Assembly (NCBI GenBank): GCA_022842945.1
Contig: JALHOO010000001.1
Span: forward strand, 288,040-352,039
Origin: Minisyncoccota bacterium
GTDB taxonomy: Bacteria; Patescibacteriota; Minisyncoccia; Phycocordibacterales; Phycocordibacteraceae
Direction of reading: 5' to 3'
Length of the DNA: 64,000 nucleotides
The translations under genes were made by a program, and so were the position numbers. Position 1 is the stretch's first letter. Every line of letters begins with the position of its first letter. Below, piece after piece: positions 17,310 through 49,988 of this stretch. The notes under the pieces are model-generated. The model was not told the DNA's origin. It did not search any database and saw only the letters and a program-made list of their open reading frames with translations.

Positions 17310-17337
17310 GTCTGGGAGACTGGGACGATGTTGGAAC
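17310..17337 (+). repeat. Conserved intergenic element, copy A (partial internal duplication: gtctgggaga-ctgggacgatgttggaac)
   Basis: Shares 'ctgggacgatgttggaac' with copies B-D. Confidence 0.8.
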
Positions 17338-17382
17338 TTTTATAAAGATTCAGGCCAGACGCTTCCGCGCCTGGCCCAAGGA

Positions 17383-17727
17383 TCATTGTAGGCGAAGATC
17401 CATCGCCTCGAACTCGCTCCGAATAAACGCCATCTCGCAGACGGCCTCGGTGTGAAGGGCCGGATTCCTGCGATCGATGTCGAGTGCCGGAATAAGCTCG
17501 TCACGAAGGCGCATGATATGACTCGCGAGTCGGCGCACATGGTCTCCATGGTTGGTCAGCACCAGCTCATCCCCGAGAACTTTACGGGTATATTCTCGCG
17601 ACTTCTCACGCGCGGTATCTTCCGCATGTTCAGCGAACTCCCTCAGGTTCTCGAAGGAAAGCAGTCCTACCATGGCGCGAGCGAAAACCTGGGTGTTGGT
17701 TAGAACGTACTGTGCACGATTCAGCAT
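17383..17727 (-). CDS. Hypothetical protein with C-terminal RNxxxH (HEPN-like) motif
   Basis: 'DIDRRNPALHTEAV' near the C-terminus of a 114-aa helical protein. Followed by hairpin 'ggccagacgc-ttcc-gcgcctggcc' and a T-run on the minus strand. Confidence 0.35.
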   Translation of the reverse strand: MLNRAQYVLTNTQVFARAMVGLLSFENLREFAEHAEDTAREKSREYTRKVLGDELVLTNHGDHVRRLASHIMRLRDELIPALDIDRRNPALHTEAVCEMAFIRSEFEAMDLRLQ

Positions 17728-17796
17728 ATCAGTCTCCGTTTCCGAGATGTATCTGCTGGGAATGTATACCTCATCGCCCTAATTGTCGAGCTAAAG

Positions 17797-17818
17797 ATTG
17801 CTGGCCGTCTGGCACGAT
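17797..17818 (+). repeat. Conserved intergenic element, diverged copy E (attgctggccgtctggcacgat)
   Basis: About 20 of 24 positions match the left half of copy D (tgctggc.gtctgg.acgat). Confidence 0.5.
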
Positions 17819-17831
17819 ATTATTCAAACGG

Positions 17832-18386
17832 CTATCTCATTATTTTAGTTAATGCTTTAAGCGCATGGGGCAATGTATTCCATCCCGCCGCCCCATTTAA
17901 ATGGCCGCCGTTCTTAACGATGACCAGCTCAGCATCCAACTCTTTAGCAAGAAAGACCCCCTGCTCTATCGGTACACTTCGGTCAGTATCGCCGTGTATA
18001 ACAACAACCTTTCCTGCCTTCTGTTTTATAGTCTTGAAATTAAAGGGTGTATTCAGGAAGCTAGCGACCTTTTTCTTCGTGATTTTGAAGACCGGACCCG
18101 AAACAAGAACGACACCGCGCACTTGCTTTCCTGGAGCTTTTTCGAGATAGCGCAGAATTGCTGGTACTCCCAGACTATGGCCGACCAGATATACCTGGTC
18201 CTTGGTATTTGATTCAACATGTCTCGAAATCTCTTTAACCCAGTCTTTTGATTCAGGCTTGTTAGGCGAGGGCATAGCAAGAGCACAGGTATATATGCCC
18301 TGCTTATCAAGTTCAGCCATAAGCCATGGCCGCCATCCTCCATTAGGACTGCCTTCGAAACCATGGATTAAAAATACCTTTTTCAT
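17832..18386 (-). CDS. RBBP9/YdeN-family alpha/beta serine hydrolase
   Basis: 'MKKVFLIHGFEGSPNGGW...VYLVGHSLGV...VVVIHGDTD' gives the GHSLG nucleophile elbow and catalytic Asp/His spacing. Confidence 0.7.
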   Translation of the reverse strand: MKKVFLIHGFEGSPNGGWRPWLMAELDKQGIYTCALAMPSPNKPESKDWVKEISRHVESNTKDQVYLVGHSLGVPAILRYLEKAPGKQVRGVVLVSGPVFKITKKKVASFLNTPFNFKTIKQKAGKVVVIHGDTDRSVPIEQGVFLAKELDAELVIVKNGGHLNGAAGWNTLPHALKALTKIMR

Positions 18387-18392
18387 ATTTTG

Positions 18393-19121
18393 TTATGCTG
18401 CGTACGACACACGAATCGCGTCTTTCTCCTTCTTAATCTTTCGGATTGTAATAGTGCCAATAGTTCCTAGATTGTTCACGTGAGTTCCTCCGCAGGGAAT
18501 GCCTGCTGCTCCGTACATAACCACTCGCGCGGGCTTTCCTTCTGGGAGATACTCGGGCACGTTTTGGCAGACCGTATGCATCTCTTCTTTCGGCATGAAC
18601 TGTATGGAAACCGCATCTGCACGCATGACGATTTCGTTCGACTTCTCCTCAAGAGCTTTCTTGAATGTATCAATGTCTCCTGCCTCCTCTATGTCTCCCT
18701 AGTATTCAACGTAGGGTCCTTGCGGGAAGTGATAGCCCTTCCCGGGCTTCCAATGAATGTTCGGAAACTCTAGGAGCGCGAGATCAACGACGTGCCCTGC
18801 AGAGTGCAAGCGTGCATGAAGTAGCCGTCTCTCGGCATCTACTTCGCACTGAACTGTTTCGCCTGCAGAGAAGTTGCCCTGCTCAAACATTCCCACGTGC
18901 TTCACGATTCCATCAACGAACCTCACTTCTTCTACTTTGAATACAGCAGACGCAGAACGTATAAAGCCCTGATCAAAAGGCTGTCCTCCGCCTTGAGGGT
19001 AGAAGATAGTCTGATCCAATACGACCACCGTCTTTCCTTCCTCTTCTTCAACTGCCAGAACCTCAGCCTCAAGAGCTAAGAGGCTCATATCTTCGAGGTA
19101 TGTAAGGGATGTTGGCTTCAT
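18393..19121 (-). pseudogene. alaX: AlaX-M-type alanyl-tRNA editing protein interrupted by one in-frame TAG (at 18701..18699)
   Basis: ORFs 18699..19178 and 18393..18626 are in the same frame, separated only by TAG. Together they carry 'QTIFYPQGGGQPFDQG', HxxxH ('HSAGHVV') and CxxxH ('CGGTHV') Zn motifs of the AlaRS editing core. TAG is a real stop elsewhere (mltG, topA). Confidence 0.7.
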
Positions 19122-19140
19122 TGGGTTAATCGTATCAGAT

Positions 19141-19176
19141 TTTATTGCTGGGGGTGTGGGACGATGTTGGAACCGC
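19141..19176 (+). repeat. Conserved intergenic element, copy B (tttattgctgggggtgtgggacgatgttggaaccgc)
   Basis: About 32 of 38 positions identical to copy D. About 20 nt upstream of the alaX start on the minus strand. Confidence 0.85.
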
Positions 19177-19461
19177 ACTAGTCAGCCTTAACAACATAAA
19201 AGGCTAAAACTCCTTCCTGTTGTTCCTCTCAAGCGTAGACTTAGAAGTTCCTTGTCGAACCGCCCTGAAGAAGGCTACTACCTTGGTCAGAAGTCCTTAT
19301 TCTGTCTGGAAAGACATGCCTGTACGTGAGCAGCATGAGCTCTTTTTCTTTATCTTTGACGCTAAACTGACGTATAGCAAAAAAGATGGCTATCGAACCG
19401 CAGAAACGCCAACAGCCGCAAGGCTTTTTGAAGGCTTTGCGGCTGTTGACTCTTCTACGGT

Positions 19462-19533
19462 GGACCGTACAGGATTCGAACCTGCGACCCTCTCATTGCA
19501 AATGAGATGCTCTACCAACTGAGCTAACGGCCC
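19462..19533 (-). tRNA. tRNA-Ala (anticodon TGC)
   Basis: GGGCCGT/TA/GCTC-AGTTGGTA-GAGC/A/TCTCA-TTTGCAA-TGAGA/GGGTC/GCAGG-TTCGAAT-CCTGT/ACGGTCC/A. G3:U70 and A73. Confidence 0.9.
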
Positions 19534-19552
19534 TTTCGGGAACTCATGAACT

Positions 19553-20527
19553 TTAGCGTTTCTTTCCCGTTAGAGCAAGGTCTACTAGGTGGGAAAGGAA
19601 GTCCGGGAAGGATACCCCCACGGCAGCCAGGGACTTCGGCAATAGGCTCTCAGACGTCATGCCCGGGAGGGTATTGGTTTCTATGAAGTAGATACCTTTG
19701 GGGGTAACCATAAAGTCAGAGCGGGAATAGTGTCTGAGATTGAGTCCCTGGTGCATAACTCGCGCCATACGCATGAGCTCTTCAGACACCGAGCGGGAGA
19801 AGCGCCCCGGCACAATCTCCTTCGAGCTTCCTGAATATTTCGCATCATACGAGAAGAAGTCCCTCTCCGGGGGCACTATCTCTATAGGCGGAAGTGCATA
19901 GAGCTCTTCGTCCCGAAGACCCTCCACAACTCCAGCCGTAGCCTCGGTGCCCCGTATAAGCTCCTCCACAAGCACTCCTCCGCTTCCTGCTTCAAGAAGC
20001 GCGTCTATAGCGTCATGGACGGGTTTAAACCCTCCTACGATACTAATGCCCACAGACGATCCCCAACGAAGTGGCTTTACAATAACCGGCTGATGGAAGG
20101 AGCGCGTAATCTCCATAGCAACAGCCTCGGTGTCTGCACCCACTTCAACGAAGCGATACTTCGGCGTAAGAAGCCCCAGCTCCTTTGCACGTTCCTTGGT
20201 AAGCACTTTGTGCATAGCCAGGTACGAACCGAAGGGATCAGACCCGGTATACGGAACCCCGTACCGCTCGAGCACCTTCTGTACTTCCCCGTCTTCTCCG
20301 TATTCCCCATGAAGACCCACGACAACTGCGTCTAAGGAGGGCAACACACGGCCAGGGGACGTAGGACGGCCACGCTCGTGCCACACACCTTCTGTATCTA
20401 TGTAGATGTCACGCGTTGTATACCGGTCCTCTGGCAGGTTCGTGAGGATGGCATGCCCAGTCTTCAGAGACACTTCGTGCTCTTTGGAAGGACCTCCTCG
20501 CAATACGCCAACAACGGTGCCTCGCAT
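19553..20527 (-). CDS. ddl: D-alanine--D-alanine ligase
   Basis: N-terminus 'VGVLRGGPSKEHEVSLKTG' and an ATP-grasp C-terminus 'FIETNTLPGMT' are typical of Ddl. Confidence 0.9.
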   Translation of the reverse strand: MRGTVVGVLRGGPSKEHEVSLKTGHAILTNLPEDRYTTRDIYIDTEGVWHERGRPTSPGRVLPSLDAVVVGLHGEYGEDGEVQKVLERYGVPYTGSDPFGSYLAMHKVLTKERAKELGLLTPKYRFVEVGADTEAVAMEITRSFHQPVIVKPLRWGSSVGISIVGGFKPVHDAIDALLEAGSGGVLVEELIRGTEATAGVVEGLRDEELYALPPIEIVPPERDFFSYDAKYSGSSKEIVPGRFSRSVSEELMRMARVMHQGLNLRHYSRSDFMVTPKGIYFIETNTLPGMTSESLLPKSLAAVGVSFPDFLSHLVDLALTGKKR

Positions 20528-20563
20528 ATAGAGTGAGTATATCAGTACGAGTACACAAGGAAG

Positions 20564-21823
20564 CTACGTACTCTTGCGCATTGCTCGTGTGCGAGCCTTT
20601 CGATGATTTGAAAGAGAGAACCGATGCGCCTCTGCGTTAGCGAGCACCGCGTCAGCATCAGACACGCCCGCACGTAGTCCTCCGAGCACTTCACGTGGTC
20701 GGTGCTTTTCATCTTTCACAACCGCAACAACCGGCAATCCAATCCCTACTTCCTTCAACAGATCCTCTGCTGCCTTCTTATGCGTCTTCCCTCCGTCTAC
20801 AACGAATGCCTTCGGTAGCGGCCACTCTGAGTGCCCGAGCCTACGCGAAAGAATCTCCTTCAAAGAGGCGATGTCGTCGTTAAGGGACTTGCCTCCCGTG
20901 CCTTTAATCGTAAAGGTACGGTAATCCTTCTTAACAGCAGAGCCGTTCTCAATAACCGTCATAACACCTATCGCATTAGTGCCGCTCAAGTGCGCAGTGT
21001 CATAGGCCTCAATACGTGGACCCTGATCGTCACCACGATCTTCCTTGATAAGCGATACGTCCTGAATATGATCAAGCGCAAAGAGTTGGCGTCGTATTTG
21101 CGCAGCCTCTTCAAACTCCTCTTTCTTCGCAAACGCATGCATGTCACGCGTAAGTTGAGCGCGTAGCGCCTTAACCCTTCCGGAGAGGAACAACGATACG
21201 TTCCTAATGGAGCGCATGTACTCAGAACGTGCCATATCCTTCGGATAGAGACCCACCTGCCTATTGAACTCAACCTTGGCCTGTAGGTGCTTATTCCCGT
21301 CTCCTACGGGCTTCTGGGTGTCGTAGAAAGGGAAGATGCGGCGTATAAGCTTCAAACCTTCACGCAATTGGTATCCCGAAGGAAACGGTCCATGGATGCT
21401 TTTGAGTTTGAGTCCCGTGAGCAACACCTTCTTCCCCTTCATATCAAGCTCCGCACCACGTATCGCAAGCACACGAGGTATCTCTTCGTCTGTAACAACC
21501 GCATAGAGGAAGGTCTTGTCGTCCTTGCCCATGGAGTTAGCCGGTGGCAGGTGCTCGCGAATAAGTGCCGCCTCACGCACCAACGCCTCAAGTACGGTTG
21601 GTGTTGCCTCAAACATAACCCCGTCTGACTTCGTAACCATGTCCACAATACGCGGGCCACGAGTAGCAATAAGCTCTATATCAAAATAAGACCGTACCCG
21701 ATCGCGAAGCGAGGTTGCCTTTCCTACGTACAGAATCTTCTTAGACCGTCCCTTGCCTTCCGTAAACAAATACACCCCCGGACAATCCGGGAGTTCAAAC
21801 TTGGCGAGGTCTGCGCGTTCCAT
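20564..21823 (-). CDS. uvrC: Excinuclease ABC subunit C, short form (419 aa; GIY-YIG + UVR + endonuclease domain, no C-terminal HhH)
   Basis: 'PDCPGVYLFTEGKGRSKKILYVGKATSLRDRVRSYF' is GIY-YIG. 'EEFEEAAQIRRQLFAL' is a UVR motif. 'VVDGGKTHKKAAEDLL' resembles the UvrC endonuclease domain. Confidence 0.8.
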   Translation of the reverse strand: MERADLAKFELPDCPGVYLFTEGKGRSKKILYVGKATSLRDRVRSYFDIELIATRGPRIVDMVTKSDGVMFEATPTVLEALVREAALIREHLPPANSMGKDDKTFLYAVVTDEEIPRVLAIRGAELDMKGKKVLLTGLKLKSIHGPFPSGYQLREGLKLIRRIFPFYDTQKPVGDGNKHLQAKVEFNRQVGLYPKDMARSEYMRSIRNVSLFLSGRVKALRAQLTRDMHAFAKKEEFEEAAQIRRQLFALDHIQDVSLIKEDRGDDQGPRIEAYDTAHLSGTNAIGVMTVIENGSAVKKDYRTFTIKGTGGKSLNDDIASLKEILSRRLGHSEWPLPKAFVVDGGKTHKKAAEDLLKEVGIGLPVVAVVKDEKHRPREVLGGLRAGVSDADAVLANAEAHRFSLSNHRKARTRAMRKST

Positions 21824-21892
21824 AGATACATCCTACCGGCCCAACAGTGCTGCGTAAATGAAATGCGGGTCCAAACTCTTGGACCCGCTTTC

Positions 21893-22210
21893 TCAAGCAA
21901 CCACTAAATGCAGTTTTCTCAGCCGCTCCTTGTAATAGGAACAAATGTAGTAGGGAACCCTTGCACGCAAGGTCCAAGCTTCGAAATCGGCTGCCGCAAT
22001 CTTTACGAGCTCAGGATCGCTAACTGGCTTGCACCTGTATTTCGCAAGCGCGAACAGGAAGAGGTCTGCGTCAGACGCGTCCCTCTCCCAGCCAACGGCG
22101 CTCGCTTCTGCGAACAACGCTCGTACACCGTGAAGAAGGTTCTTGCGTTGCGACACGTCCTCCGCGATCTTCTGGCAGTCTAGGTTCTCAATGGATGCTA
22201 AATCCATCAT
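21893..22210 (-). CDS. Hypothetical protein (105 aa) between uvrA and uvrC
   Basis: ORF only. Confidence 0.35.
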   Translation of the reverse strand: MMDLASIENLDCQKIAEDVSQRKNLLHGVRALFAEASAVGWERDASDADLFLFALAKYRCKPVSDPELVKIAAADFEAWTLRARVPYYICSYYKERLRKLHLVVA

Positions 22211-22277
22211 GATGCTTCCCTCCCAAGGACAATGTATCTAAAGCCTAAGTGTAGCACGCGCATAAGCGCACTATCCC

Positions 22278-24944
22278 CTAAGACTTCTTAACCGGCTTCT
22301 GGTGCTTCTTAAGAAGCTTTGCGAGGTACGTTCCCGTGTGGGATCCGGCGGTTTCCGCAACCTCCTCAGGCGTTCCCTTCGCTACAATCTTTCCGCCTCC
22401 GGTGCCTCCTTCCGGACCAAAGTCTATGAGATAGTCTGCAGACTTAATAACGTCGAGGTTGTGCTCAATCACCACAACGGTGTTTCCGCGACGCACCAAC
22501 TCCTGCAGGATCTCAATAAGCTTGCGTACGTCTTCGTAATGAAGACCAACCGTAGGCTCATCGAGAAGATACAGCGTCTTCATCGTAATAGGACGGTACA
22601 GCTCAGACGCAATCTTCACGCGCTGTGCTTCTCCTCCAGACAAGGTCGTTGCACTCTGTCCCAGGGTTAAATACTGAAGGCCCGTAGAGTTAAGACTCTC
22701 AAGGCGGTCGTTAATAGCAGGGATATCCTTGAAGAACACCTCGGCCTCTTCAACCGTCATCTGAAGCACTTCGTAGATGTTCTTGCCGCGGTACGTAACC
22801 TCAAGCGTCTCCTTCATATAGCGTGTACCATTACACACGTCACAGGTTACATACACCGTTGGGAGGAAGTGCATCTCAACTGCAATAACCCCATTGCCCT
22901 GACACGCTTCGCAGCGTCCACCCGCAACATTGAATGAGAAGCGTCCTGGCTTCCACCCGCGCGCCCTCGCCTCGCTAGACGCAGAAAAGAGATCACGAAT
23001 ATGTGTAAACGCACCTGTATAGGTTGCAGGGTTTGAGCGCGGCGTGCGGCCAATAGCAGACTGGTCTATGAGCACTACGCGCCCCAAGTACTCGGTTCCC
23101 GTTATGCTTGCGCAGTGTTCAGGTTCGCTCTGTCGGCGTGAGAAACGTGCGGCAACATTCTTGTGCAGAATGTCGTAGAGGAACGTGGACTTCCCAGAGC
23201 CCGATACGCCCGTTATACAGACGAGCTTGCCCAAAGGAACCTCAACGTTCAGGTTCTTGATGTTGTGTAGCGTTGCACCCTTTATCTTAATAGAGCCCTT
23301 CTGACTGGTGCGGCGCTCTTCCGGAAGCTCTACGCGGGTTTCCTCACGCAGGTATGAGAGGGTAGTTGAACCGCTCTCGTTGGTTGGCGCGGTGAGTAAG
23401 TCGTCGAGCCATCCTTCTGCCACCACGTTTCCTCCATGGACTCCCGCTCCAGGTCCAATATCAAGAAGGTAGTCAGCGGCGTAGATAGTGTCCTCGTCAT
23501 GCTCAACCACGAGAATCGTATTCCCCAGCTTCTTAAGGGTAAGGAGGGTATTAATAAGGCGCTCGTTGTCCCTCTGATGCAGACCAATCGTCGGCTCATC
23601 AAGCACGTAGAGTGCTCCCACAAGACCGGTGCCAAGCTGAGACGCCAAGCGAATGCGCTGTGCTTCCCCACCTGAAAGCGTAGCCGCTGAGCGGTTAAGG
23701 GTGAGGTAGTCGAGTCCAACGTTCAACATGAAATCAAGACGTGCCGTAATCTCGCGAAGAATCGGGAACGCAATCTCAGACTTCATCTCAGAGAGCACGA
23801 GCGTATCCATGAAGTCTTTCGCTTCTTTAATCGACATGCCCACAAAGTCCACGATGTTTGTACCTACGTCCGTGAGTTCGTCTTCGTTCACGTTCATCTT
23901 CTTTTTAGTCGAAAGGTACACACGAAGCGCTTCAGGACGCAGACGCTTCCCTTCACACACCGGACACACCTCGTCCGAGAACAGAGACTTCGTACCAAGA
24001 CCGTTACAGTTTGGACACGCACCATACGGACTATTAAAGGAGAAGAGACGTGGCTCAACTTCTGGGAAGGACGTGCCGTCTATAGGGCAGATAAACTTAG
24101 CTGAGAGGGTCTCCATAGAGCCGTCTGCGTGCTTTATCTTAACGAGCCCGTCACTCTCCTTGAGAGCCAATTCTAGGGCTTCTGAGAGGCGCTCCTTAGC
24201 TGCGTCCGGACTCCTATCGAAGTCTGAGACGTAGATAGAATCCACAATTGCGTCGATGTCATGACGCTTATTGCGATCAAGTGTTACCTTCTCGCGAAGC
24301 GCGTGTGGCTTCCCGTCTATAAGCACCTTCTCGTATCCCTTTCCGAGAAGATCATAGAGGAGCTGGTAGTACTCACCTTTGCGACCAACCACCACCGGCG
24401 CATAGATAGTTATCGCCGTCTTATCAACCGCAACGCCCATAACCTCTTCCTTTGTGCGCGTATCGTTACGCTTCTTAATATTCTCCTGCACCATGCGGAT
24501 CATCTCCTCTTTTGAGAGCTTTTCGATAGGCACATCATGGTTGATGCAGTACGGCTGTCCTGCACGTGCGTAGAGCACGCGAAGGTAGTCATAAATCTCC
24601 GTAACCGTAGCAACCGTTGAGCGCGGGTTATTAGAACGAGACTTCTGGTCTATGGAAATAGCCGGCGCGAGTCCCGTTATCTCATCCACGTCAGGCTTCT
24701 GCATCTGGTTCAAGAACTGGCGGGCGTATGCAGACAAAGACTCTACATAGCGACGCTGTCCCTCAGCAAAGATAGTGTCGAAGGCGAACGAAGACTTTCC
24801 GGAGCCCGAGAGTCCCGTAACAACGGTCATGGCACCCCGAGGGAACTCGGTACTGATGTTCTTTAAGTTATGGGTACGCGCACCCTTCACGCGGATCCAG
24901 TCCTCGCCTATGTGTTGTTCGTGTTTCTTGGTGACCTTCTTCAT
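22278..24944 (-). CDS. uvrA: Excinuclease ABC subunit A
   Basis: 888 aa with two ABC modules, 'GLSGSGKSS' and 'GVSGSGKST' P-loops, and Zn-finger Cys clusters. Confidence 0.97.
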
Positions 24945-32017: not shown

Positions 32018-32019
32018 AG

Positions 32020-42069: not shown

Positions 42070-42092
42070 ACGTCTGAATTTATACGAAATGA

Positions 42093-42677: not shown

Positions 42678-42680
42678 ATA

Positions 42681-43103
42681 TTAAAGGTTGTCGATGTAAA
42701 TCTTCCCTTGTAGCCAGCTCTTTATAACCGCTCCACTTGGAAGGAATAGGTTCTCGGGAATCTCATCCGGCGCGCACCAGGTCCAATTGCGCGCTTTCTC
42801 TGACTCCATGGCCACAGGTTCTCCAGACTTCCACTTGGCGAGCATACCGATAGTTACAAAATGCTTTCCGTATACGCGATCGTTCTTCACGCATATCAAA
42901 TCCGTTATTTCTACATCCGTAAGGCCGGTCTCCTCTTCCAGTTCTCTGCGAGCCGTATCTTCAAAAGACTCATCAAATTCCATATGTCCTCCTGGGATAC
43001 TGTATGATCCGGCACCGTGACTAGCGAGACGTTCGCCAATGAGGACTTTTCCGTCTTTAACCACAAGCACCCCTACGCCAACTTTGGGCCGTTCTGTTTC
43101 CAT
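42681..43103 (-). CDS. Nudix hydrolase
   Basis: Nudix box 'GGHMEFDESFEDTARRELEEETGL'. Start taken at METERPKV. Confidence 0.85.
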   Translation of the reverse strand: METERPKVGVGVLVVKDGKVLIGERLASHGAGSYSIPGGHMEFDESFEDTARRELEEETGLTDVEITDLICVKNDRVYGKHFVTIGMLAKWKSGEPVAMESEKARNWTWCAPDEIPENLFLPSGAVIKSWLQGKIYIDNL

Positions 43104-43218
43104 GGAGGAAGTATACCAATGTACGTACGTGCGGTACTGTAGACCTATGAACAAGCCTCGAGGAAGAAGTGCTCCGAAGAAGCAGGTAGAGTCTCAGTCA
43201 ACTGAGGCGGTCTTCCCG

Positions 43219-43917: not shown

Positions 43918-44226
43918 ACCCTTTTGCCACTGAGACTCTTTGAGATTAACCTTCGTTCCTTTGAAGGAAACACCTTCGTCGAGAAGCATCGTTCGCTTTG
44001 TGGAGAGTCCTTGTCCGGCACTGTATCCCGTGAGTGCGCCGTTGCTTGCAACAACCCGGTGACACGGGGTCTTTGGAATATCCGGATTGCATCGCATGGC
44101 GAAACCAACCGCTCGTGCTGCTCCGGGACTCCCTGCAAGTAGAGCTATCTGTCCGTACGTAGCAACCTTACCTTTAGGAATGGAGCGCGCAATGGCGTAT
44201 ACCGTTTCCGTAAAGGCAGTGGCCAT
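43909..44226 (-). CDS. ogt: Methylated-DNA--protein-cysteine methyltransferase (DNA-binding/active-site domain)
   Basis: Active-site 'PCHRVV'. Other family matches 'TYGQIA' and 'AARAVGFAMRCNP'. Confidence 0.85.
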   Translation of the reverse strand: MATAFTETVYAIARSIPKGKVATYGQIALLAGSPGAARAVGFAMRCNPDIPKTPCHRVVASNGALTGYSAGQGLSTKRTMLLDEGVSFKGTKVNLKESQWQKGLR

Positions 44227-44228
44227 AG

Positions 44229-44618
44229 TTAGATAAGCGTAAATCCAACGAGACAGAGATACACACCAAGGAGAATCGCAAGGGTACCGCCAAGGTGATA
44301 CCACATACGCACGTTAAAGGTTCTAATAATCCACGACATTATGCGATCTGGCACAAGCAGATACGCTGCTCCTTCAATAACAAGAAGGTAACCGATAGCG
44401 GTAATGATACCCGATGCATAGGAGCTCCAATCCGTATGTGCAATAACAAGGAAGAGACCTGCAAGAAGCTCAAGAATACCCATGAGCATGCGGGTAAGAC
44501 GCTCCTCAACAAACTCGCCGATAACCGGTACAAAGTACTGTTTGCGATACAAAACCGCCGCACCTACTATGATAAGGAAGAGCCCGAGTACCTGTGACAG
44601 AAAAAGTGTTGTTTCCAT
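44229..44618 (-). CDS. Hypothetical 4-TM membrane protein
   Basis: ORF adjacent to ogt. Hydrophobic helices. Confidence 0.5.
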   Translation of the reverse strand: METTLFLSQVLGLFLIIVGAAVLYRKQYFVPVIGEFVEERLTRMLMGILELLAGLFLVIAHTDWSSYASGIITAIGYLLVIEGAAYLLVPDRIMSWIIRTFNVRMWYHLGGTLAILLGVYLCLVGFTLI

Positions 44619-44693
44619 ACGGAAAAGTATATACCCAGAAAGACACTAAAAGGAAAAGGCCCGTGTACGGGCCTTTTCCTACTCGTAGGGAAC

Positions 44694-45119
44694 CTATCCC
44701 TTCCAGACGATGCGGTCGAGGGACCACTTGCCAGCACCTGAGAGCGCGAGCGACGCACTTCCTGCAAGAAGAAGCAGTATAAACTCATACCCTCCGGTAC
44801 TCATGAAGAAGCCGTTTGGAAGGTGCACCATGAAGAGTGCCACGAGTGACACCACAACAAGAGACTTCGCTGCCCAACGAGTAAGGAAGCCAACGATGAG
44901 CATGATACCGCCGAGAAGCTCAGCAGCGATGAGAAGCACTGCGAAGAACTCAGGTGCAGGGAATCCGAGAGACGAAACGAATCCTGCGGTGCCTGCAATT
45001 CCACCCTGGAGCTTCTGCCATCCATGCATAGCAAAGATGACACCCACCGCAAGACGAAGCACGAGCGGTGCGTAGTCGCGCCAGCTATCCATATAAGAGC
45101 ACTGTAAGAATTTCTTCAT
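44694..45119 (-). CDS. DoxX family membrane protein
   Basis: 'LVLRLAVGVIFAMHGWQKL...' gives the DoxX pattern and four TM helices. Confidence 0.75.
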   Translation of the reverse strand: MKKFLQCSYMDSWRDYAPLVLRLAVGVIFAMHGWQKLQGGIAGTAGFVSSLGFPAPEFFAVLLIAAELLGGIMLIVGFLTRWAAKSLVVVSLVALFMVHLPNGFFMSTGGYEFILLLLAGSASLALSGAGKWSLDRIVWKG

Positions 45120-45190
45120 AGAGATACGTAATAAGTAACCTCTTTATTGTATCCCTACTTCAGGAAGGCAATGTGGGGACAGGTGCGTAT

Positions 45191-45445
45191 CTATGGCTTC
45201 TTGCAAAGACCCATCTTCTCCTCGCGAGTGAGCTTCTTAATAGCTGCTTCCCTGATGCAGGCTTCGCTTCTCGTATCAAATGCTTCCTGGTGTACAAGCA
45301 CTACGGGTCTGCGCACGCGTGTGTACTTTGCTCCTTTTGGAGACGTGTTGTGTTCTTCTAAGCGGCGCGTGAGATCTGTGGTTACGCCCGTGTAGAGGGT
45401 GCCGTCAGCGCAGGTGAGGATATAGACGTACCAATCAGAAGACAT
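45191..45445 (-). CDS. GIY-YIG nuclease family protein (UPF0213/YhbQ-like)
   Basis: 'WYVYILTCADGTLYTGVTTDLTRRLEEHN' is the GIY-YIG core. 84 aa. Confidence 0.85.
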   Translation of the reverse strand: MSSDWYVYILTCADGTLYTGVTTDLTRRLEEHNTSPKGAKYTRVRRPVVLVHQEAFDTRSEACIREAAIKKLTREEKMGLCKKP

Positions 45446-45523
45446 GCGATAAGTGTACTCCCTTTGCTCGAGGTGCGAGCTCCCTTACATCAAGACATGA
45501 AGAGCAAATGATAGAATTGTTCT

Positions 45524-46024
45524 ATGGAATCAAGTGACGCAAAGATAAATATTGCGTATATAGACGCAGCCAATCTTGATAGAGCTATTAGAGATCTGCA
45601 GTGGAAGCTGGACTATAAAAAGTTTAGGGTCTGGCTTGCAGATAAATATAAAGTAGAACGCGCATATATTTTTATTGGACTTATCCCAAAGTACAAGGAT
45701 TTGTATACATACTTTCAGGAATGTGGATTTACATTGGTCTTTAAAGAGGTTGTATATCAAGGTAGCGGTGTACCTAAAGGAAATTGTGACACTGACTTAA
45801 TCATGCAGGCCATAGACGATGCGTATGAAGACCGACTTGAGAAGGCTTTACTAATTTCTAGCGATGGAGACTATGCGCCACTCGTAAAGAAGTTACAAGT
45901 ACGCAACCAGTTCCTCGGGATTCTCTCTCCTGCTCCTGCAAAGAAGTGTTCGATTCTATTGAAACGAACAAATGCGCCGATTGCTTATATTAACGACCAG
46001 AAAAAACTTCTGCAGATAAAATAA
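45524..46024 (+). CDS. NYN-domain (LabA-like PIN-fold) protein in an AT-rich island
   Basis: 'YIDAANL...KGNCDTDLIMQAIDDAY...LISSDGDYAPLVKKL' matches the NYN/LabA acidic motif arrangement. AT-rich codon usage. Confidence 0.7.
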   Translation: MESSDAKINIAYIDAANLDRAIRDLQWKLDYKKFRVWLADKYKVERAYIFIGLIPKYKDLYTYFQECGFTLVFKEVVYQGSGVPKGNCDTDLIMQAIDDAYEDRLEKALLISSDGDYAPLVKKLQVRNQFLGILSPAPAKKCSILLKRTNAPIAYINDQKKLLQIK

Positions 46025-46135
46025 AAAGGCCCCCGATGCGGACGAGCCGCATAAGGGTCCTTTTCGTGGTGATACGAGCATTATACTCTTCGAATTCTGA
46101 AGGGTCAATGATATCCCCACCATCCTTAGAGTGGC

Positions 46136-47623
46136 TTATTTAGCGAGATCCAAGACCTCGTCTATCCGGATTTGCTCCACGAACTCAGGAACGTGTGACA
46201 CGAGCACCATAGCGCCTTCGTACTGGTCGAGTGCTTTAGCAATAACCGGGATGTGGCGGAAGTTTATGTGGTTGGTTGGCTCGTCGAGAATGAGGAGACC
46301 TGGCTGCATGAGAACTAACCGCGCGAACGCAACAAGTCCCTTCTGTCCTTCAGAGAGCGCGCCAATCTTCTTGTTGATGGAGTCGCTGGTTATGATGAAG
46401 CTCGCTGCAACCTTGCGCATCTGCTCTTCGTTTGGCTTGTCCATTGCCTGAAGCAAGGACTCGCGCACCGTGTGCTCAAAGTTAAGGGTTGAGAAGTCCT
46501 GTCGGTAGTAGCCAACCTTCACGCTCTTCGTTATGGCAGCGCCCTTAGCGGTGCCGTTCGCCAAAGACTCAAGGAGTGTGGTCTTGCCAATACCGTTAGG
46601 ACCCTTAAGAAGAAGATGCTGTTTCTTCTTCATAACGATGTTTGCAGACTTCTCTTTCGGCTGATGGGTCTTCGGATCAATTATAGAAAGGGAGCTGATG
46701 GTGAGAATCTCTCCTACGATGTCTTCCTGTACGGGAATAACGAACGGGCGAATGGTCTTGTCCTCCTTACGGACATCAACCTTAGACTCCTCCATCTCCT
46801 CAATCTCGTCACGCATCTTCTTTGCAACCACACGCATCTTGCCTCCCTTCTGTGCGAAGAAGTTCGCTTTGTCCTTGTTGTCCTGGATCTTCTTCTCGAG
46901 CTGAGCGTTCTTGCGATTTTCGCGCTCAATACGGGCTGAGATCTCGTTTAGGAGGTCGTAGTAGTTTCCGACGTACTGCTCTACCTTCTTGGTGTGCACA
47001 TCGAGGTAGAGGACGCCGTTCGAGAACGTGTTCAAGAACTCTGCGTCATGGGAAATAACCATAACGGTCTTCTCGTAGGTAAGGAGGAACTTTGTGAGGT
47101 GCTCGATGCCGGCTGTGTCGAGATTGTTCGTAGGCTCGTCAAGCAGAAGGAGGTCTGGGTCCTGAATAAGGGCAGACGCAAGAAGAAGACGTGCCTGCTG
47201 GCCTCCAGAGAAGGTCTTTATGATGCGATCATGCGGCGCATGGAGGTTCACCACCTCAAGCACCTCATCAATCTTTGGATCAATGTCGTACACCTTCTCG
47301 GCAAAACGCTTCTCGAAAAAGGCACGCACGGTAAGTTCCCTGTCTTCCGGCACAATAACCTGGTGCGAAAGGGCAATGGTGAGGCCGCGAGGCGTCTGAA
47401 TCTTTCCGCTCTCAGGCTTTAGCGTCCCTTCGATCATCTTGAAGATAGTGGACTTGCCTGCACCGTTCTGTCCCATGAGGGTAACCTTCATTCCCTTACG
47501 CAACGAGAAGTTAACCTCCGTAACAATAGGGTAGTTGTGCCCGTAGTTGAACGAGACGTCCTCAAAGCGCAAGACCGCTTCTTGCGGTCCATTACTTGTC
47601 TTTGCTGGTGCGTTCGGCGCCAT
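46136..47623 (-). CDS. ABC-F family ATPase (two tandem ABC domains, no TMD)
   Basis: Two Walker A motifs ('GQNGAGKST', 'GPNGIGKTT'), two 'LSGG/LSEG' signatures, and an inter-domain charged linker. 495 aa. Confidence 0.85.
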   Translation of the reverse strand: MAPNAPAKTSNGPQEAVLRFEDVSFNYGHNYPIVTEVNFSLRKGMKVTLMGQNGAGKSTIFKMIEGTLKPESGKIQTPRGLTIALSHQVIVPEDRELTVRAFFEKRFAEKVYDIDPKIDEVLEVVNLHAPHDRIIKTFSGGQQARLLLASALIQDPDLLLLDEPTNNLDTAGIEHLTKFLLTYEKTVMVISHDAEFLNTFSNGVLYLDVHTKKVEQYVGNYYDLLNEISARIERENRKNAQLEKKIQDNKDKANFFAQKGGKMRVVAKKMRDEIEEMEESKVDVRKEDKTIRPFVIPVQEDIVGEILTISSLSIIDPKTHQPKEKSANIVMKKKQHLLLKGPNGIGKTTLLESLANGTAKGAAITKSVKVGYYRQDFSTLNFEHTVRESLLQAMDKPNEEQMRKVAASFIITSDSINKKIGALSEGQKGLVAFARLVLMQPGLLILDEPTNHINFRHIPVIAKALDQYEGAMVLVSHVPEFVEQIRIDEVLDLAK

Positions 47624-47700
47624 AGTCTTCCTATCCTACACTATTTGTGTCGTATTGATAAGCGGGAGGTTGGAGCAAGCCTGGCTAATTCAAAATCACA

Positions 47701-47722
47701 AGTCTGGGACGATGCTGGAACC
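47701..47722 (+). repeat. Conserved intergenic element, copy C (agtctgggacgatgctggaacc)
   Basis: 21 of 22 positions match the core of copy D. Confidence 0.85.
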
Positions 47723-47779
47723 ATATATGCAAAACCGCCCCAATCATCGTAGCTGGGGCGGCAGGATAGACAAACTATA

Positions 47780-48190
47780 TCAATGAGCAGGAGTCAGGGT
47801 GTAAAGCTGATCAACTGTTGCTGAACGTTCCGCTTTGGTTATGTACAATTCCCAGGTAATAACTAGGTTTCCGGATGGGAAAACTAATTTGAGCATCAGC
47901 TCACTATCATCTGGGTTTTGTTGGAAGGCAGTATCGATCTCAACGCAGAGAGCAATAAGGCCCATTTCAAGAAGACTCGAAATCCTCAGACAGGTGTCCT
48001 TAGAGGTTGTGGCGAGACCGTAACGCTTGTTCGTACTGAGATCAGTGCACCAGAATCGATACACACGAACTCCCAGTTCCTCTCTGGCCACCAAAGCATC
48101 CATAAGAATGGTTTGATTGCCGGTTAGACTCTCAGTCGAGCTAGCTTTCTTAGCTTTCAATGTAAGCGTTTGCACTGCAACTCTCCTCAT
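47780..48190 (-). CDS. Hypothetical protein (136 aa) in an AT-rich island
   Basis: AT-rich ORF followed on the minus strand by hairpin 'ccgcccca...tggggcgg' and the conserved repeat element. Confidence 0.4.
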   Translation of the reverse strand: MRRVAVQTLTLKAKKASSTESLTGNQTILMDALVAREELGVRVYRFWCTDLSTNKRYGLATTSKDTCLRISSLLEMGLIALCVEIDTAFQQNPDDSELMLKLVFPSGNLVITWELYITKAERSATVDQLYTLTPAH

Positions 48191-48308
48191 TAGCAGAATC
48201 CACGGTAACGTCGCTAACCCGTATACCTGCTTGAATGATCAATACGACGTTATGCTTATTTAATATTAAATTCAGTGCAAGTCAATTCCTGGCAAACTAG
48301 GTATCAAA

Positions 48309-49538
48309 CTACGCACTCATCCCCGCCACATACCCCGTCGTCCAGCACAGCTGAAGCGAGTATCCTCCCGTTGGTCGCTTGATGTTAAGCAGATCTCCGA
48401 TAACAAAAAGATTGCCACAAACTTTTGAGCGCATGGTCTTGGTGTCAATCTCGGTTAGCGTTACGCCGCCGTCCGCAACAACCGCACGCGAAAGTCCCAT
48501 AAGTCCGGTTATAGTAAGCGGGAGTGCCTTAAGGAGTTCTGCAACACGCCTGCGTTCTTCCTTGGTTATGCTGTGCACACGCTTGTCTCGATCTATGTTC
48601 GGAAGGAGCGTAAGGAGGGCGTCACTAGTTCCCGCAGGCACAATCTGCCTCAGTACGTTCTGGAACTCTTTGTTCTTGTTTTGATCAAACACGCCTGCAA
48701 TATGCTTGTCGAGAATACCAAGATCCATAACAGGATACGCATCAATCGCCGCTGTTACCTCTCCTTCCTGCATGAGGTCGCTAATCTTTCCTGCTGCGTT
48801 AAGGATAAGGGGACCCGAGATACCAAAGTGCGTCATAAGCACATTGCCCTTGAGGACGAACTTCTTTGTGCCGTTCACATATACCGTCATCTTCATGTCA
48901 GGAATGGTGATGCCCGCAAGAGACTTTGCCCAGGTCTCACGCACCTTAACCGGCACAATAGTTGGGGTTGGATCGGTAACGGTGTGGCCGAGATCGGAAA
49001 GCCAACGGAACCCGTCTCCTGTTGAACCAGTCTCTGGGTGTGACACGCCGCCAGTCGCGAATATGTAGGAGGTAGCGGTGTACTCCTTTCCTCCCATGAG
49101 CACGCTCTTAATAGAACCGTTGCTTGCGTATACGCGCGCAACAGGAAGGCCCACCTTTATATCAACACCCTGCTCCTTTACGTAGGCAAACATAGCTGCC
49201 GTTACGTCCTCTGCGTTTTGTGACTCAGGGAATGCACGCTTCTTTGCTTCAACAACGATAGGTACCTCGATACTGTCAAAGAACTCGTAGGTTTCTTTAA
49301 GACCAAACTGCGAGAATGGAGAGTGCAGGAAGTTCGCACTGTCCCCAAAGTGCGAAAGCAAAAGACGCTCGTCCTCCTCTGCGTTCAGAATGTTACACCT
49401 GCCTCCACCTGTTATAGAAAGTTTCTCGCCAAGGCGCTTGTTCTTCTCAATAAGAAGAACCTTCTTCCCCTGGGAACCAGCGATACCGGCTGCCATCATG
49501 CCTGCAGCTCCTCCTCCAACAACAATTACATCGTACAT
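48309..49538 (-). CDS. HI0933-like / aminoacetone-oxidase-family FAD-binding oxidoreductase
   Basis: 'YDVIVVGGGAAGMMAAG' Rossmann fold and the family-specific 'ITGGGRCN'. Confidence 0.85.
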   Translation of the reverse strand: MYDVIVVGGGAAGMMAAGIAGSQGKKVLLIEKNKRLGEKLSITGGGRCNILNAEEDERLLLSHFGDSANFLHSPFSQFGLKETYEFFDSIEVPIVVEAKKRAFPESQNAEDVTAAMFAYVKEQGVDIKVGLPVARVYASNGSIKSVLMGGKEYTATSYIFATGGVSHPETGSTGDGFRWLSDLGHTVTDPTPTIVPVKVRETWAKSLAGITIPDMKMTVYVNGTKKFVLKGNVLMTHFGISGPLILNAAGKISDLMQEGEVTAAIDAYPVMDLGILDKHIAGVFDQNKNKEFQNVLRQIVPAGTSDALLTLLPNIDRDKRVHSITKEERRRVAELLKALPLTITGLMGLSRAVVADGGVTLTEIDTKTMRSKVCGNLFVIGDLLNIKRPTGGYSLQLCWTTGYVAGMSA

Positions 49539-49548
49539 ATCAGTTAGA

Positions 49549-49926
49549 TTAGGCATCAGACCACACGGCGAGCTCGTTGCCAGCAGGATCAGTAAAATGG
49601 AATCGCTTTCCTCCCGGGAAATCGAATATCGGGTTAACAATAGCGCCTCCCGCTTCTTCTACATCCTTAAGGGTCTGTGAGAGGTCGTTTGAGTAGAGGA
49701 TAACCAGAGCACCTTCTTTGCCACGATTGGTTCCTTTCTCGAATCCGCCGTCGAGAGTACCGTCCGTAAAGGCAGTGTAGGTTGGGCCGTAGTCGGTGAA
49801 CTGCCAGCCAAACACCTTCATATAGAAGGCTTTAACGGCCTCCAGATCCTCCGCAGGGAATTCGATGTAATTAATGGCGTGATGCCTGTTCATGTAGCTA
49901 CAGTACCTTGACTGCAGAGTCTGCAC
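49549..49926 (-). CDS. VOC (glyoxalase/bleomycin-resistance) family protein
   Basis: 'INYIEFPAEDLEAVKAFYMKVFGWQF...' is the VOC beta-alpha-beta-beta-beta module. Alternative start at 49893. Confidence 0.7.
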   Translation of the reverse strand: MQTLQSRYCSYMNRHHAINYIEFPAEDLEAVKAFYMKVFGWQFTDYGPTYTAFTDGTLDGGFEKGTNRGKEGALVILYSNDLSQTLKDVEEAGGAIVNPIFDFPGGKRFHFTDPAGNELAVWSDA

Positions 49927-49950
49927 AAAGCAGGACTGCAGATTCTCGGT

Positions 49951-49988
49951 TATTTACTGCTGGCAGTCTGGGACGATGTTGGAACCGC
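49951..49988 (+). repeat. Conserved intergenic element, copy D (tatttactgctggcagtctgggacgatgttggaaccgc)
   Basis: Longest, reference copy, between the VOC gene start and the stop of the AT-rich ORF 49994..50347. Confidence 0.85.

Follow-up and report, generated by a model that had tools for sequence, protein, structure and literature searches.

What is the short intergenic element that recurs five times, always in one orientation, in the 64,000-nt stretch of DNA analysed here (the window): a promoter, operator or RNA leader shared by the genes of a small stress regulon, or a recombination hotspot or scar near tRNA genes that marks where foreign genes integrate? Both readings were put forward in the original prediction. 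The evidence favours gene capture at an integron-like site over a switch shared by several genes: the repeat is probably an att-like recombination junction bounding single-gene cassettes that accumulate downstream of tRNA-Gln. A repeat mimicking the tail of the tRNA-Gln gene would mark the borders of small, swappable accessory genes in ultra-small Patescibacteria.

The repeat itself is confirmed as real, with four strong copies and one diverged copy on a single strand. Searching the window with GTCTGGGACGATGTTGGAACC at up to three mismatches gave four sites, all on the plus strand (17318-17338, 19154-19174, 47702-47722 and 49966-49986; copies A, B, C and D, respectively), and zero sites in 100 shuffles. 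A profile built from 170 outside copies recovered the same four sites (E 4e-11 to 6e-7), together with the diverged copy E at 17796-17818, and nothing beyond these in the 64 kb. The predicted five dispersed, co-oriented copies are thereby borne out, and B and D, when recomputed, share 32 of 38 nt as had been stated. The core said to be common to all copies, TGGGACGATG(T/C)TGGAAC, is shared by A-D, whereas E shares its outline only; the block is preceded by GACT in A and by GTGT in B. None of the five copies in the 64 kb lies inside a coding region or in the opposite orientation, and their density is ~1 per 13 kb. Nor is the repeat confined to the window: 226 copies matching the consensus were counted in 99 Patescibacteria loci, which were gathered by an exact 18-mer in 8-kb tiles with crude ORF calling; some tallies below rest on 170 copies (profile, flanks, hairpins) or 174 copies (flank orientation). 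In gene-strand orientation, the 35-nt consensus reads ANAAAG-GTTCCAACATCGTCCCAGAC-nGCCAGCAA, in which no inverted repeat or dyad is visible.

Table 1 Repeat copies and associated features in the window.
Feature	Position	Strand	Sequence	Found by
Variable segment 1: B, alaX, serine hydrolase, E, HEPN-motif gene, A, AbiU2-like gene	16299..19452	-		
Copy A	17309..17343	-	ATAAAAGTTCCAACATCGTCCCAGTCTCCCAGACC	mismatch and profile searches
Copy E, diverged	17796..17830	-	CGTTTGAATAATATCGTGCCAGACGGCCAGCAATC	profile search (E = 0.034)
Copy B, full motif	19145..19179	-	AGTGCGGTTCCAACATCGTCCCACACCCCCAGCAA	mismatch and profile searches
T-arm-like fragment in the gap between tRNA-Ala and copy B (second at 19393-19401)	19255..19263	-	GCGGTTCGA	
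tRNA-Ala(UGC), left border of variable segment 1	19459..19533	-		
Variable segment 2: insertion between FAD oxidoreductase and conserved ABC-F promoter	47663..48307	-		
Degenerate tRNA-3'-like tail after copy C	47675..47701	-	TTGTGATTTTGAATTAGCCAGGCTTGC	read from sequence
Copy C, 5' arm only	47702..47727	-	TATATGGTTCCAGCATCGTCCCAGAC	mismatch and profile searches
Inserted cassette gene, 136 aa	47780..48190	-		
tRNA-Gln-3'-like fragment directly past FAD-oxidoreductase stop; left junction of variable segment 2	48286..48308	-	TTTGATACCTAGTTTGCCAGGAA	
Copy D, full motif	49957..49991	-	AAGGCGGTTCCAACATCGTCCCAGACTGCCAGCAG	mismatch and profile searches
SnoaL-like cassette gene, between tRNA-Gln and copy D	49994..50347	-		
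tRNA-Gln(UUG), same strand as all copies	50366..50437	-	3' end CTAGGTTCGATCCCTAGTCTCCCAGC	

Copy D begins 7 nt past the stop codon of the SnoaL-like gene and lies 381 nt 3' of tRNA-Gln; the SnoaL-like gene looks leaderless, because TGATATACT stands 7 nt ahead of its ATG. Copy C, within variable segment 2, comes after the hairpin that ends the inserted 136-aa gene, for which there was no Pfam match, and the tail following it loosely repeats, as judged by eye, the fragment at the left junction of that segment. Copy B is found 286 nt 3' of tRNA-Ala(UGC), a short way ahead of alaX, which also looks leaderless; the stop codon of the serine hydrolase (ORF end 17832) closely precedes copy E, and copy A is preceded by a terminator-like hairpin (17350-17379). 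The B/E/A cluster adjoins tRNA-Ala and not tRNA-Gln, an observation that counts against the reading involving tRNA-Gln. The two T-arm-like fragments near this tRNA-Ala may, on weak support, be recombination scars; the pattern GCGGTTCSA has four matches in the window, all on the minus strand, compared with 1.16 expected. Genes beside the copies (AbiU2-like HEPN, AlaX, ABC-F, VOC, HI0933-type FAD oxidoreductase, SnoaL-like, DUF2177 and TspO) were assigned as before, and the small neighbours are indeed AT-rich, with GC contents of 40% (SnoaL-like), 38% (AbiU2-like) and 46% (136-aa gene) against 52% for the window; set against the genome, the cassette genes are likewise AT-rich.

The original prediction had found no match to a tRNA 3' end. 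This was wrong: the 3' end of tRNA-Gln in the window can be aligned with the motif (AGGTTC...ATC..CC.AG.CT.CCAGCA), scoring 23 where shuffles score 12.8 ± 2.5 (z = 4.0; 0.3% of shuffles). Two indels separate the arm from the T-arm, so the similarity depends in part on gapped alignment. For the other three tRNAs of the window, alignment to the motif gave z ~0. About 7-12 nt of the repeat are equal or nearly equal to tRNA-Gln, and those bases co-vary with it: the motif core carries the end bases of tRNA-Gln where these are CGAGC (L085), CGAAC (L015, L065) or CCAAC (L068), and in L031, where tRNA-Gln ends in GCAAC, the motif has CCAAC (4/5 match). Within the window, the acceptor 3' strand of tRNA-Gln recurs without change as the 3' part of copy A, TCTCCCAG.

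Position links the two as well. Among the 47 tRNA genes in the 99 motif-bearing Patescibacteria loci, 26 are tRNA-Gln, and 25 of these are on the motif strand with every copy 3' of the tRNA, the first copy being usually separated from it by one gene (317-1500 nt). Immediately 3' of tRNA-Gln, the DNA is laid out as it is 3' of the motif (extended -10, 6-7 nt, ATG). Canonical 23-25-nt tRNA-Gln 3' fragments are present at some junctions, and five loci (L121, L102, L007, L061 and L088) show tRNA-Gln 3' fragments and partial tRNA-Gln duplications at motif sites.

Beyond the window, the repeat displays an integron-like trait, namely co-oriented arrays of single-ORF cassettes that each end in a site and are highly diverse in content. 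Multiple copies are held by 56 loci (183 copies), none of which is mixed in orientation, while the genes between copies run both forward (64) and in reverse (26). The 90 ORFs between copies (median 140 aa) represent 89 sequence clusters, and a Pfam scan of 57 between-copy ORFs gave matches including NUDIX, serine hydrolase, HD, SnoaL, HAD and RidA. Arrays are flanked by dnaX, a metalloprotease gene and tRNA-Gln, and those at the shared dnaX-tRNA-Gln locus differ in their genes (L004, L079, L055). The largest have up to 7 copies in ~3 kb, and the single gene that each bounds is intact and equipped with a promoter and a terminator of its own. Of 85 cases with a forward ORF upstream, 41 have its stop codon either no more than 12 nt from the motif or in the A-rich prefix of the motif, and CYTH and serine-hydrolase genes retain the arm while the DNA downstream differs; as read from these sequences, the arm belongs to the upstream gene.

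Comparison with sister genomes, which the original prediction had proposed, places both window clusters in segments that relatives lack or fill differently, with homology breaking at the motif edge. L178 carries an identical motif at the position of copy D, downstream of which the two genomes are homologous (83% nucleotide identity) and upstream of which they are unrelated; homology begins exactly at the 5' edge of copy D, and in place of the SnoaL-like gene L178 carries another gene, which runs on the opposite strand. Relative to L121 and L119, the window has an insertion of 645 bp that includes copy C (variable segment 2) and is absent from both. In these two syntenic loci, the same ABC-F promoter stands directly past the FAD-oxidoreductase stop without the motif, and no tRNA-Gln-3'-like fragment is present at the position of the left junction; at the same position, L102 has TTCGATCCTTGGTCTGCCAGCAA, followed by a different gene (NUDIX). 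In comparison with L235, the 3.15-kb B/E/A segment replaces a RelA_SpoT gene, the breakpoints being the 3' end of tRNA-Ala(UGC) and the start of DUF2177. Kinship with tRNA-Gln, position, co-variation and these variable segments all support the second of the two readings.

A junction of the kind proposed here would have two parts: a conserved ~26-nt arm (ANAAAG-GTTCCAACATCGTCCCAGAC), probably a diverged T-arm and acceptor region of tRNA-Gln, and a short core (nnCCAGCAA) matching the last bases of the genome's own tRNA-Gln gene. We infer a site-specific recombinase that would insert, and so move, small DNA units of one or two genes, each terminated by an arm, with the crossover in the core at the tRNA-Gln 3' end or at a previously inserted copy. 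Repeated insertion would generate a tandem array (tRNA-Gln / gene / arm-core / gene / arm-core) and would leave all repeats in the orientation of the tRNA, whatever the direction of the genes. The units would bring their own expression signals: for forward genes, an extended -10 box ~7-10 nt past the core and a leaderless ATG; for reversed genes, a sigma-70-type promoter beside the arm and a hairpin terminator beside the core. The repeat would therefore look like an upstream element of genes. In the window, this scheme would give one unit at tRNA-Gln (SnoaL-like gene and D), one at a secondary tRNA-like site past the FAD oxidoreductase (136-aa gene and C), and a three-copy array (B, E, A) in an island starting at tRNA-Ala.

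No recombinase was detected inside or next to the arrays with phmmer, using XerD, Hin and lambda Int seeds against 3285 ORFs. The sole match among the motif-bearing Patescibacteria loci was a conserved, syntenic XerD-like gene (L023); it adjoins a motif copy there and a degenerate one in L239, and adjoins none in three other genomes. No recombinase family is among the first 25 of the 45 Pfam families listed for the 57 cassette ORFs. Nothing seen in the motif loci corresponded to an excised circle, an empty/occupied pair at >95% identity or an identical cassette in two contexts; nor did a phage attP turn up, the viral scan returning only an unrelated alphaproteobacterial gene. The motif also lacks the dyad symmetry that core sites of tyrosine recombinases usually show.

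The lack of an array-linked integrase would also suit passive scars, that is, attR-type ends left by independent, decayed prophages or integrative elements targeting tRNA-Gln, with no dedicated cassette system. So would the partial tRNA-Gln duplications and canonical tRNA 3' fragments at the same sites, and an element with a large serine recombinase that L238 carries at the tRNA-Ala spot. We nevertheless consider this origin unlikely: the derived arm GGTTCCAACATCGTCCCAGAC, unable to rebuild a T-arm, is conserved across distant Patescibacteria lineages, including bases beyond the collecting 18-mer, the largest arrays are runs of intact genes, stop codons lie within the motif prefix, and no phage structural family is among the Pfam families listed for the scanned cassette ORFs.

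Rather less probable is a polar transcription insulator or factor-dependent terminator, which would take its orientation from the prevailing direction of transcription and whose likeness to a tRNA would be incidental or due to shared processing. Forward genes do often end 0-12 nt ahead of the motif, too close for a hairpin, opposite-strand genes reach it via a hairpin and T-tract (51 of 170), the forward RNA is C-rich and unstructured, and 53 of 63 clear loci have the motif oriented with the strand that carries most of the coding sequence. However, 42 of 174 copies lie between divergent genes, where there is nothing to terminate, and 27 copies, including A and C of the window, are already preceded by a forward hairpin terminator. 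Clustering 3' of tRNA-Gln, co-variation and cassette turnover would also be left unexplained.

The first of the two original readings, in which a promoter, operator or leader RNA bound by a regulator or sigma factor would place a stress or housecleaning regulon under common control, is largely refuted and keeps little credibility. Its appeal lies in the copies of the window, which occupy 5' regions of genes, in the many neighbours that are small detoxification or housecleaning enzymes, and in promoter-like signals: in ~15% of copies an extended -10 box (TGnTAnnnT) falls at +30 to +39, with an ATG at +46 to +49, and in ~13-14% a conserved extension of 30 nt can be read as a promoter on the opposite strand, the motif's TTGGAA forming its -35. 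The distance from motif to -10, however, covers a 10-nt range with two peaks, and that to start codons has no fixed value. Genes flanking 170 copies occur in all four orientation combinations, about a quarter of copies lying between convergent gene ends without a promoter (for example, in L010), and motif orientation tracks the array and not the gene. Moreover, L121, L119, L102, L117 and L096 retain the ABC-F promoter where the motif is missing. The suggested RNA motif fared no better, as both strands fold no better, indeed somewhat less well, than shuffles (z ~ +1) and no Rfam family matches. Among its ~60 genes the window has only five copies, and a regulon would not account for the tRNA-Gln link and co-variation.

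A selfish dispersed repeat (REP- or MITE-like) or DNA uptake signal is the most improbable of all, as the motif, although multi-copy, intergenic and conserved in a lineage thought to rely on DNA uptake, lacks inverted repeats and a hairpin, is strictly uniform in orientation, is sparse and absent from genes in the window, and clusters beside one tRNA gene; simple motif insertion is countered by both flanks differing between close relatives. An uptake sequence, which would be very dense, in both orientations and within genes, was rejected on the window counts.

The proposed att-like junction resembles several known systems in part. REP/BIME and other intergenic repeats are likewise short, multi-copy, intergenic and often beside terminators, but the motif differs from them in lacking a palindrome, in keeping strictly to one orientation, in being tied to a single tRNA gene and in having cassettes that turn over at its edges. 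Xer-dependent modules, such as IMEX elements and the pdif modules of Acinetobacter plasmids, depend for their mobility on a recombinase whose gene lies elsewhere; small gene modules between short recombination sites, and a conserved XerD-like gene in motif-bearing genomes, are common ground. Sites of the dif type are 11-6-11 dyads (~11-bp inverted arms, 6-8-bp spacer) whose orientation alternates in pdif modules, whereas the motif is asymmetric, always direct and without a dyad. Integrative elements that insert at the 3' end of tRNA genes, for whose att sites Williams is said to have defined sublocation classes in 2002, form tandem islands with direct repeats of the tRNA 3' segment at their borders. 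Their att sites also lie 3' of a tRNA gene in its orientation, share and co-vary with its terminal bases, and have variable AT-rich DNA between repeats and partial tRNA duplications nearby. By contrast, the units here are single genes without an integrase, up to seven in a row, and only ~7-12 nt equal the tRNA, the remaining arm being derived, conserved across lineages and unable to restore a functional tRNA. Integrons differ in that attC is an imperfect palindrome (R''/L''...L'/R' boxes) folding to a hairpin, which the motif is not and does not, in that the anchor here is tRNA-Gln instead of attI beside intI, with no integron integrase found beside the arrays, and in that the cassettes have their own promoters and terminators in place of a common Pc promoter. 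Yet integrons, including integrase-less CALIN, share with these loci tandem, mostly single-gene cassettes that vary widely in content and whose genes each have a conserved site at the 3' end, sites all in one orientation despite occasional inverted genes, and an array on a fixed chromosomal anchor whose content varies between relatives.

Searching the window with the 21-mer GTCTGGGACGATGTTGGAACC at up to three mismatches returned four sites, corresponding to motif copies A–D (see table), whereas 100 shuffles returned none. A profile built from copies outside the window recovered the same four sites and the diverged copy E (E = 0.034), with no others in the 64 kb. Read along the neighbouring minus-strand genes (the F direction), the window copies align as GGTTCCAACATCGTCCCAGACnnCCAGCA. 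The repeat is therefore real, and both the 32/38-nt identity between copies B and D and the identities of the genes beside the copies are as originally described. The internal partial duplication ascribed to copy A is a tRNA-derived core: its TCTCCCAG matches the 3′ acceptor strand of the window's own tRNA-Gln exactly. A caveat is that the second cluster (B/E/A), whose cores are of tRNA-Gln type, adjoins tRNA-Ala.

The element extends far beyond this genome. Scanning one genome per species for CTGGGACGATGYTGGAAC yielded at least 118 stretches, most of them from Patescibacteria metagenome-assembled genomes. The matches listed include Paceibacterota/Parcubacteria, Kaiser-, Nomura- and Wolfebacteria, with a few Microgenomates, WWE3 and Berkelbacteria, and carry up to seven copies per tile within ~3 kb; the rest of the listed matches are one alphaproteobacterial coding gene. 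This Rhodobacterales-type gene, which holds the 21-mer GTTCCAACATCGTCCCAGACA in a conserved reading frame (L008, L021, L035 and others; L196–L229), seems unrelated to the element of Patescibacteria, though it contaminates searches by pattern; it accounts for all 34 exact matches in IMG/VR viral contigs, among which no phage attP was seen. Comparison loci (L-numbers) were collected as 8-kb tiles around an exact 18-mer, with genes called by ORF heuristics. An information profile built from 170 copies delimits a sharp-edged 35-nt element, ANAAAG-GTTCCAACATCGTCCCAGAC-n-GCCAGCAA, in which the central 18 nt are imposed by the search pattern and the other 17, flanking positions reflect genuine conservation. 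It comprises an arm of ~26 nt, resembling a diverged tRNA-Gln T-arm/acceptor, and a short core. Tabulated across these tiles, flanking genes and orientation show a lineage-wide motif with a single orientation per multi-copy locus, a wider finding than could be seen from the window's sequence alone. The searchable literature on the sequence itself, Patescibacteria promoter motifs, intergenic repeats, integrons or tRNA islands yielded no account of the element.

The FAD oxidoreductase led to two syntenic metagenome relatives, L121 and L119. In L121, GGTTCGATCCCTACTCTGCCAGCAA lies 19 nt 3′ of tRNA-Gln and is a 3′ fragment of that tRNA, its end coinciding with the motif end; the link to tRNA-Gln was therefore tested by position, similarity and co-variation. 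Among the matches listed, tRNA-Gln makes up 26 of the 47 tRNA genes in 99 motif-bearing loci, and in 25 of these 26 it lies on the F strand with every copy 3′ of the tRNA, the first copy usually one gene off. Aligned to the 3′ end of the window's tRNA-Gln, the motif scores 23 versus 12.8 ± 2.5 for shuffles (z = 4.0, in a gapped alignment that has some freedom); for the window's two tRNA-Ala genes and tRNA-Leu, z is ~0. Finally, the core bases equal the tRNA-Gln end bases (CGAGC, CGAAC or CCAAC) in L085 (three times), L015, L065 and L068; L031 pairs a tRNA-Gln ending in GCAAC with a CCAAC core. Separately, three loci (L007, L061, L088) contain partial tRNA-Gln duplications that extend from the D-loop (GGTAGGACAG) as far as the 3′ end, ~30 nt past the intact gene, with the intervening spacer (ACAGCACATTTCACTC...) kept across genomes; we interpret these as the signature of another, classical tRNA-Gln-targeting element.

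As the original prediction proposed, the same loci were compared in relatives; content at both clusters differs. L121 and L119 have nothing between the FAD-oxidoreductase stop codon and the conserved ABC-F promoter (CTTATCAATACGACAC...); the DNA lying there in the window is therefore an insertion, whose 136-aa gene has no homologues outside its own population. L102 carries a different gene (NUDIX), starting with TTCGATCCTTGGTCTGCCAGCAA, at the same junction, and L117, L096 and L009 have other content again. At copy D, the window and L178 share an identical motif and 83% identity downstream, but are unrelated upstream of the motif's first base, where the window has a forward SnoaL gene and L178 a reverse gene whose promoter abuts the arm. 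By eye, an ORF upstream of tRNA-Gln in L121, with its HTH-like N-terminal region and ...ALYWAEGSK... motif, looks like a LAGLIDADG-type homing endonuclease, which raises the possibility of insertion at this locus driven by double-strand breaks.

At cluster B/E/A, comparison with L235 (Ddl 87% identical) places the window's variable segment in the position of a RelA_SpoT gene; one breakpoint is the 3′ end of tRNA-Ala(UGC), the other the start codon of DUF2177. The displaced 349-aa protein is small alarmone synthetase-like; its gene lies between tRNA-Ala and DUF2177-TspO and is absent there in the window. In L238, a 513-aa large serine recombinase (Resolvase + Recombinase) directly 3′ of tRNA-Ala(UGC), followed by ~6 kb of genes without assigned function, occupies the B/E/A position; the site is therefore a hotspot at which elements of different kinds integrate. 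No motif copy was found within 8 kb in either L235 or L238. Within the window segment, alaX has an in-frame TAG that separates an N-terminal, tRNA-synt_2c-like portion from the C-terminal one. The same two ORFs occur in an independent Logan assembly (L232), so the TAG is no assembly error of the window; either the cassette is decaying and alaX a pseudogene, or the codon is a site of read-through or recoding.

Coordinates of features in the window and in comparison loci
Feature	Locus	Position	Strand	Details
Copy A, 21-mer site	window	17318	+	pattern search, ≤3 mismatches
Copy B, 21-mer site	window	19154	+	pattern search, ≤3 mismatches
Copy C, 21-mer site	window	47702	+	pattern search, ≤3 mismatches
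Copy D, 21-mer site	window	49966	+	pattern search, ≤3 mismatches
Insertion	window	47663–48307		tRNA-like fragment, promoter, 136-aa gene, hairpin, copy C, degenerate tRNA-like tail
Variable segment, B/E/A	window	16299–19452		
alaX	window	18393–19121	−	TAG at 18699–18701 (…PYVEY*GDIEE…)
Leaderless-type gene, alaX	window	19121		TGnTAnnnT box
Leaderless-type gene, SnoaL	window	50347		TGnTAnnnT box
30-nt module (examples)	L014; also L055, L099, L116	5565–5594 (L014)		TCT(A/G)GACAGAAC..TA.CA....TTGCA.AA.G
Candidate homing endonuclease	L121	~6900–7880		
Segment with RelA_SpoT-domain gene	L235	9076–10271		
Large serine recombinase	L238	9015–10556		
Alpha-CTD ORF	L100	6210–6602		PF03118
XerD-like tyrosine recombinase	L023	4198–5190		302 aa; 78–100% identical across many Patescibacteria
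XerD-like tyrosine recombinase	L239–L242	5001–5909		as above

The genes lying between copies are AT-rich and diverse: among the matches listed, 90 such ORFs fall into 89 clusters (median 140 aa), and a Pfam scan of 57 returned NUDIX, serine hydrolase, HD, SnoaL, HAD, RidA, CYTH and methyltransferase domains among its matches. Arrays at the dnaX-tRNA-Gln locus of L004, L079 and L055 have no cassette in common, and a search for one cassette in two contexts gave a single pair, the CYTH gene of L010 and L073. Forward genes typically run up to the motif: for 41 of 85, the distance from stop codon to motif is at most 12 nt, and the stop often falls within the A-rich prefix itself. For the CYTH gene (L010, L073) and for serine hydrolases (window, L004, L010), the arm is kept while the downstream DNA differs. 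Moreover, the layout 3′ of tRNA-Gln (in the window, CCCAGCA-T-TGATATACT-7 nt-ATG of SnoaL) matches that 3′ of the motif core. Together, these features therefore define the unit as core, gene with its own signals, then arm; the tRNA-Gln 3′ end would serve as the first core. One 130-aa cassette ORF, in L100, is almost wholly an RNA polymerase alpha C-terminal domain (E = 1e-20), which is unusual as a free-standing accessory gene.

The alternative originally offered, a shared promoter, operator or RNA leader defining a small regulon, draws on promoter elements near some copies. About 15% have an extended −10 at +30 to +39, with an ATG 6–7 nt further (leaderless genes), but promoter boxes at set distances are confined to subsets of copies. 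The reading fails on mixed gene orientations and on RNA structure: both motif strands fold worse than shuffled sequence, and Rfam, at gathering thresholds and at E ≤ 10, returned nothing relevant to the motif. ORF-based calls place 59 copies between tandem forward, 22 between tandem reverse, 38 between convergent and 42 between divergent genes, whereas orientation is mixed in none of the 56 multi-copy loci (183 copies) among the matches listed. In L014, seven F copies divide small genes of opposite direction, the reverse genes having their own TTGACA-17-TATAAT-like promoter at the motif's GGAAC end and a hairpin terminator at its CAGCAA end. A −10 in the A-rich prefix, which would make the motif a common 5′ leader, was likewise rejected on convergent contexts and absent structure. 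A replication-oriented motif (KOPS, Chi or Ter-like) accounts for orientation less well than the tRNA link; motif orientation follows local forward genes except in L108 and L115, on one contig, where it flips along with the local genes but is opposed to them. By eye, sigma-70, sigma-54 and ECF readings founder on the lack of a conserved −10 within the motif, and the plus strand's likeness to TGGCACG-N4-TTGC misses the −12 GC and faces away from the genes. Shared 6–8-mers are all that supports complementarity to the 16S 3′ end or a resemblance to 5S rRNA, and were judged chance.

A 30-nt module lies 5′ of the motif in about 13–14% of copies (22 loci). On the opposite strand it presents an extended −10 (TGnTAnnnT) 13–14 nt past GGAAC and a conserved start region, GTTCTGTC(T/C)AGA, with a Shine-Dalgarno site after it; the module has the appearance of a portable promoter serving reverse-oriented cassettes. 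Its similarity to a longer tRNA-Gln remnant (TAGACAG versus TAGGACAG) is too weak, and the promoter module fits better. Many genes adjoining the motif or tRNA-Gln have a TGnTAnnnT box 6–8 nt before the ATG and no Shine-Dalgarno site, a pattern suggestive of widespread leaderless mRNAs in this set of accessory genes.

Site-specific recombination with crossover in a short identical core classically leaves direct repeats, a tRNA 3′ anchor, core identity and edge breakpoints. Of the two readings first put forward, the recombination hotspot or scar is the one borne out, by the tRNA-Gln link, core co-variation, uniform orientation and variable DNA at motif edges. These data support a more specific form of it, in which the motif derives from tRNA-Gln and forms an att-like repeat at the boundaries of Patescibacteria accessory-gene cassettes, and such crossover may take place at the motif. 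In the data compared, neither an excision product nor a phage attP nor a duplicated cassette turned up, so we infer recombination from sequence. A possible, still tentative model is an undescribed gene-capture system in many Patescibacteria (mainly Paceibacteria/Parcubacteria): self-expressing single-gene cassettes with a 26-nt pseudo-tRNA arm at the 3′ end would be inserted serially at the tRNA-Gln 3′ end by a recombinase encoded elsewhere, giving arrays that resemble integrons but lack both attC hairpins and an integron integrase. If so, the mixture of core variants matching other lineages' tRNA-Gln ends would record cassette exchange between lineages.

The recombinase may be the lineage's conserved XerD-like enzyme. 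Searches using approximate XerD, Hin and lambda Int seeds found no recombinase beside the arrays other than this gene, which has a conserved neighbourhood (NYN, rpsO, recombinase, Exo_endo_phos, CCA-adding enzyme) into which small variable genes have been inserted on either side. In L023 the 3′ end of the gene adjoins a motif copy and in L239 a degenerate one, whereas L240–L242 have none, so no specific tie of this gene to the motif emerges.

Patescibacteria, whose genomes are tiny, live attached to other cells; to our knowledge, their gain and loss of accessory functions is poorly understood. The conserved, easily searchable 35-nt tag shows an entry point for accessory genes, the tRNA-Gln 3′ end, and because it delimits each unit, the mobile gene pool of the radiation can be catalogued straight from metagenomes. 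It also offers a defined DNA substrate for a recombinase hunt and, in the few members that can be cultivated, perhaps a landing site for genetic tools. More generally, a conserved motif 5′ of genes can be a promoter-carrying recombination junction and not necessarily a regulon signal.

Unlike standard tRNA-targeting islands, the units described here have no integrases, and their arm is incapable of rebuilding the T-arm. They resemble integrons in forming arrays of single-gene units with a site at the 3′ end of each, but have no attC hairpin and no integrase next to the arrays, and hence are not integrons by definition.
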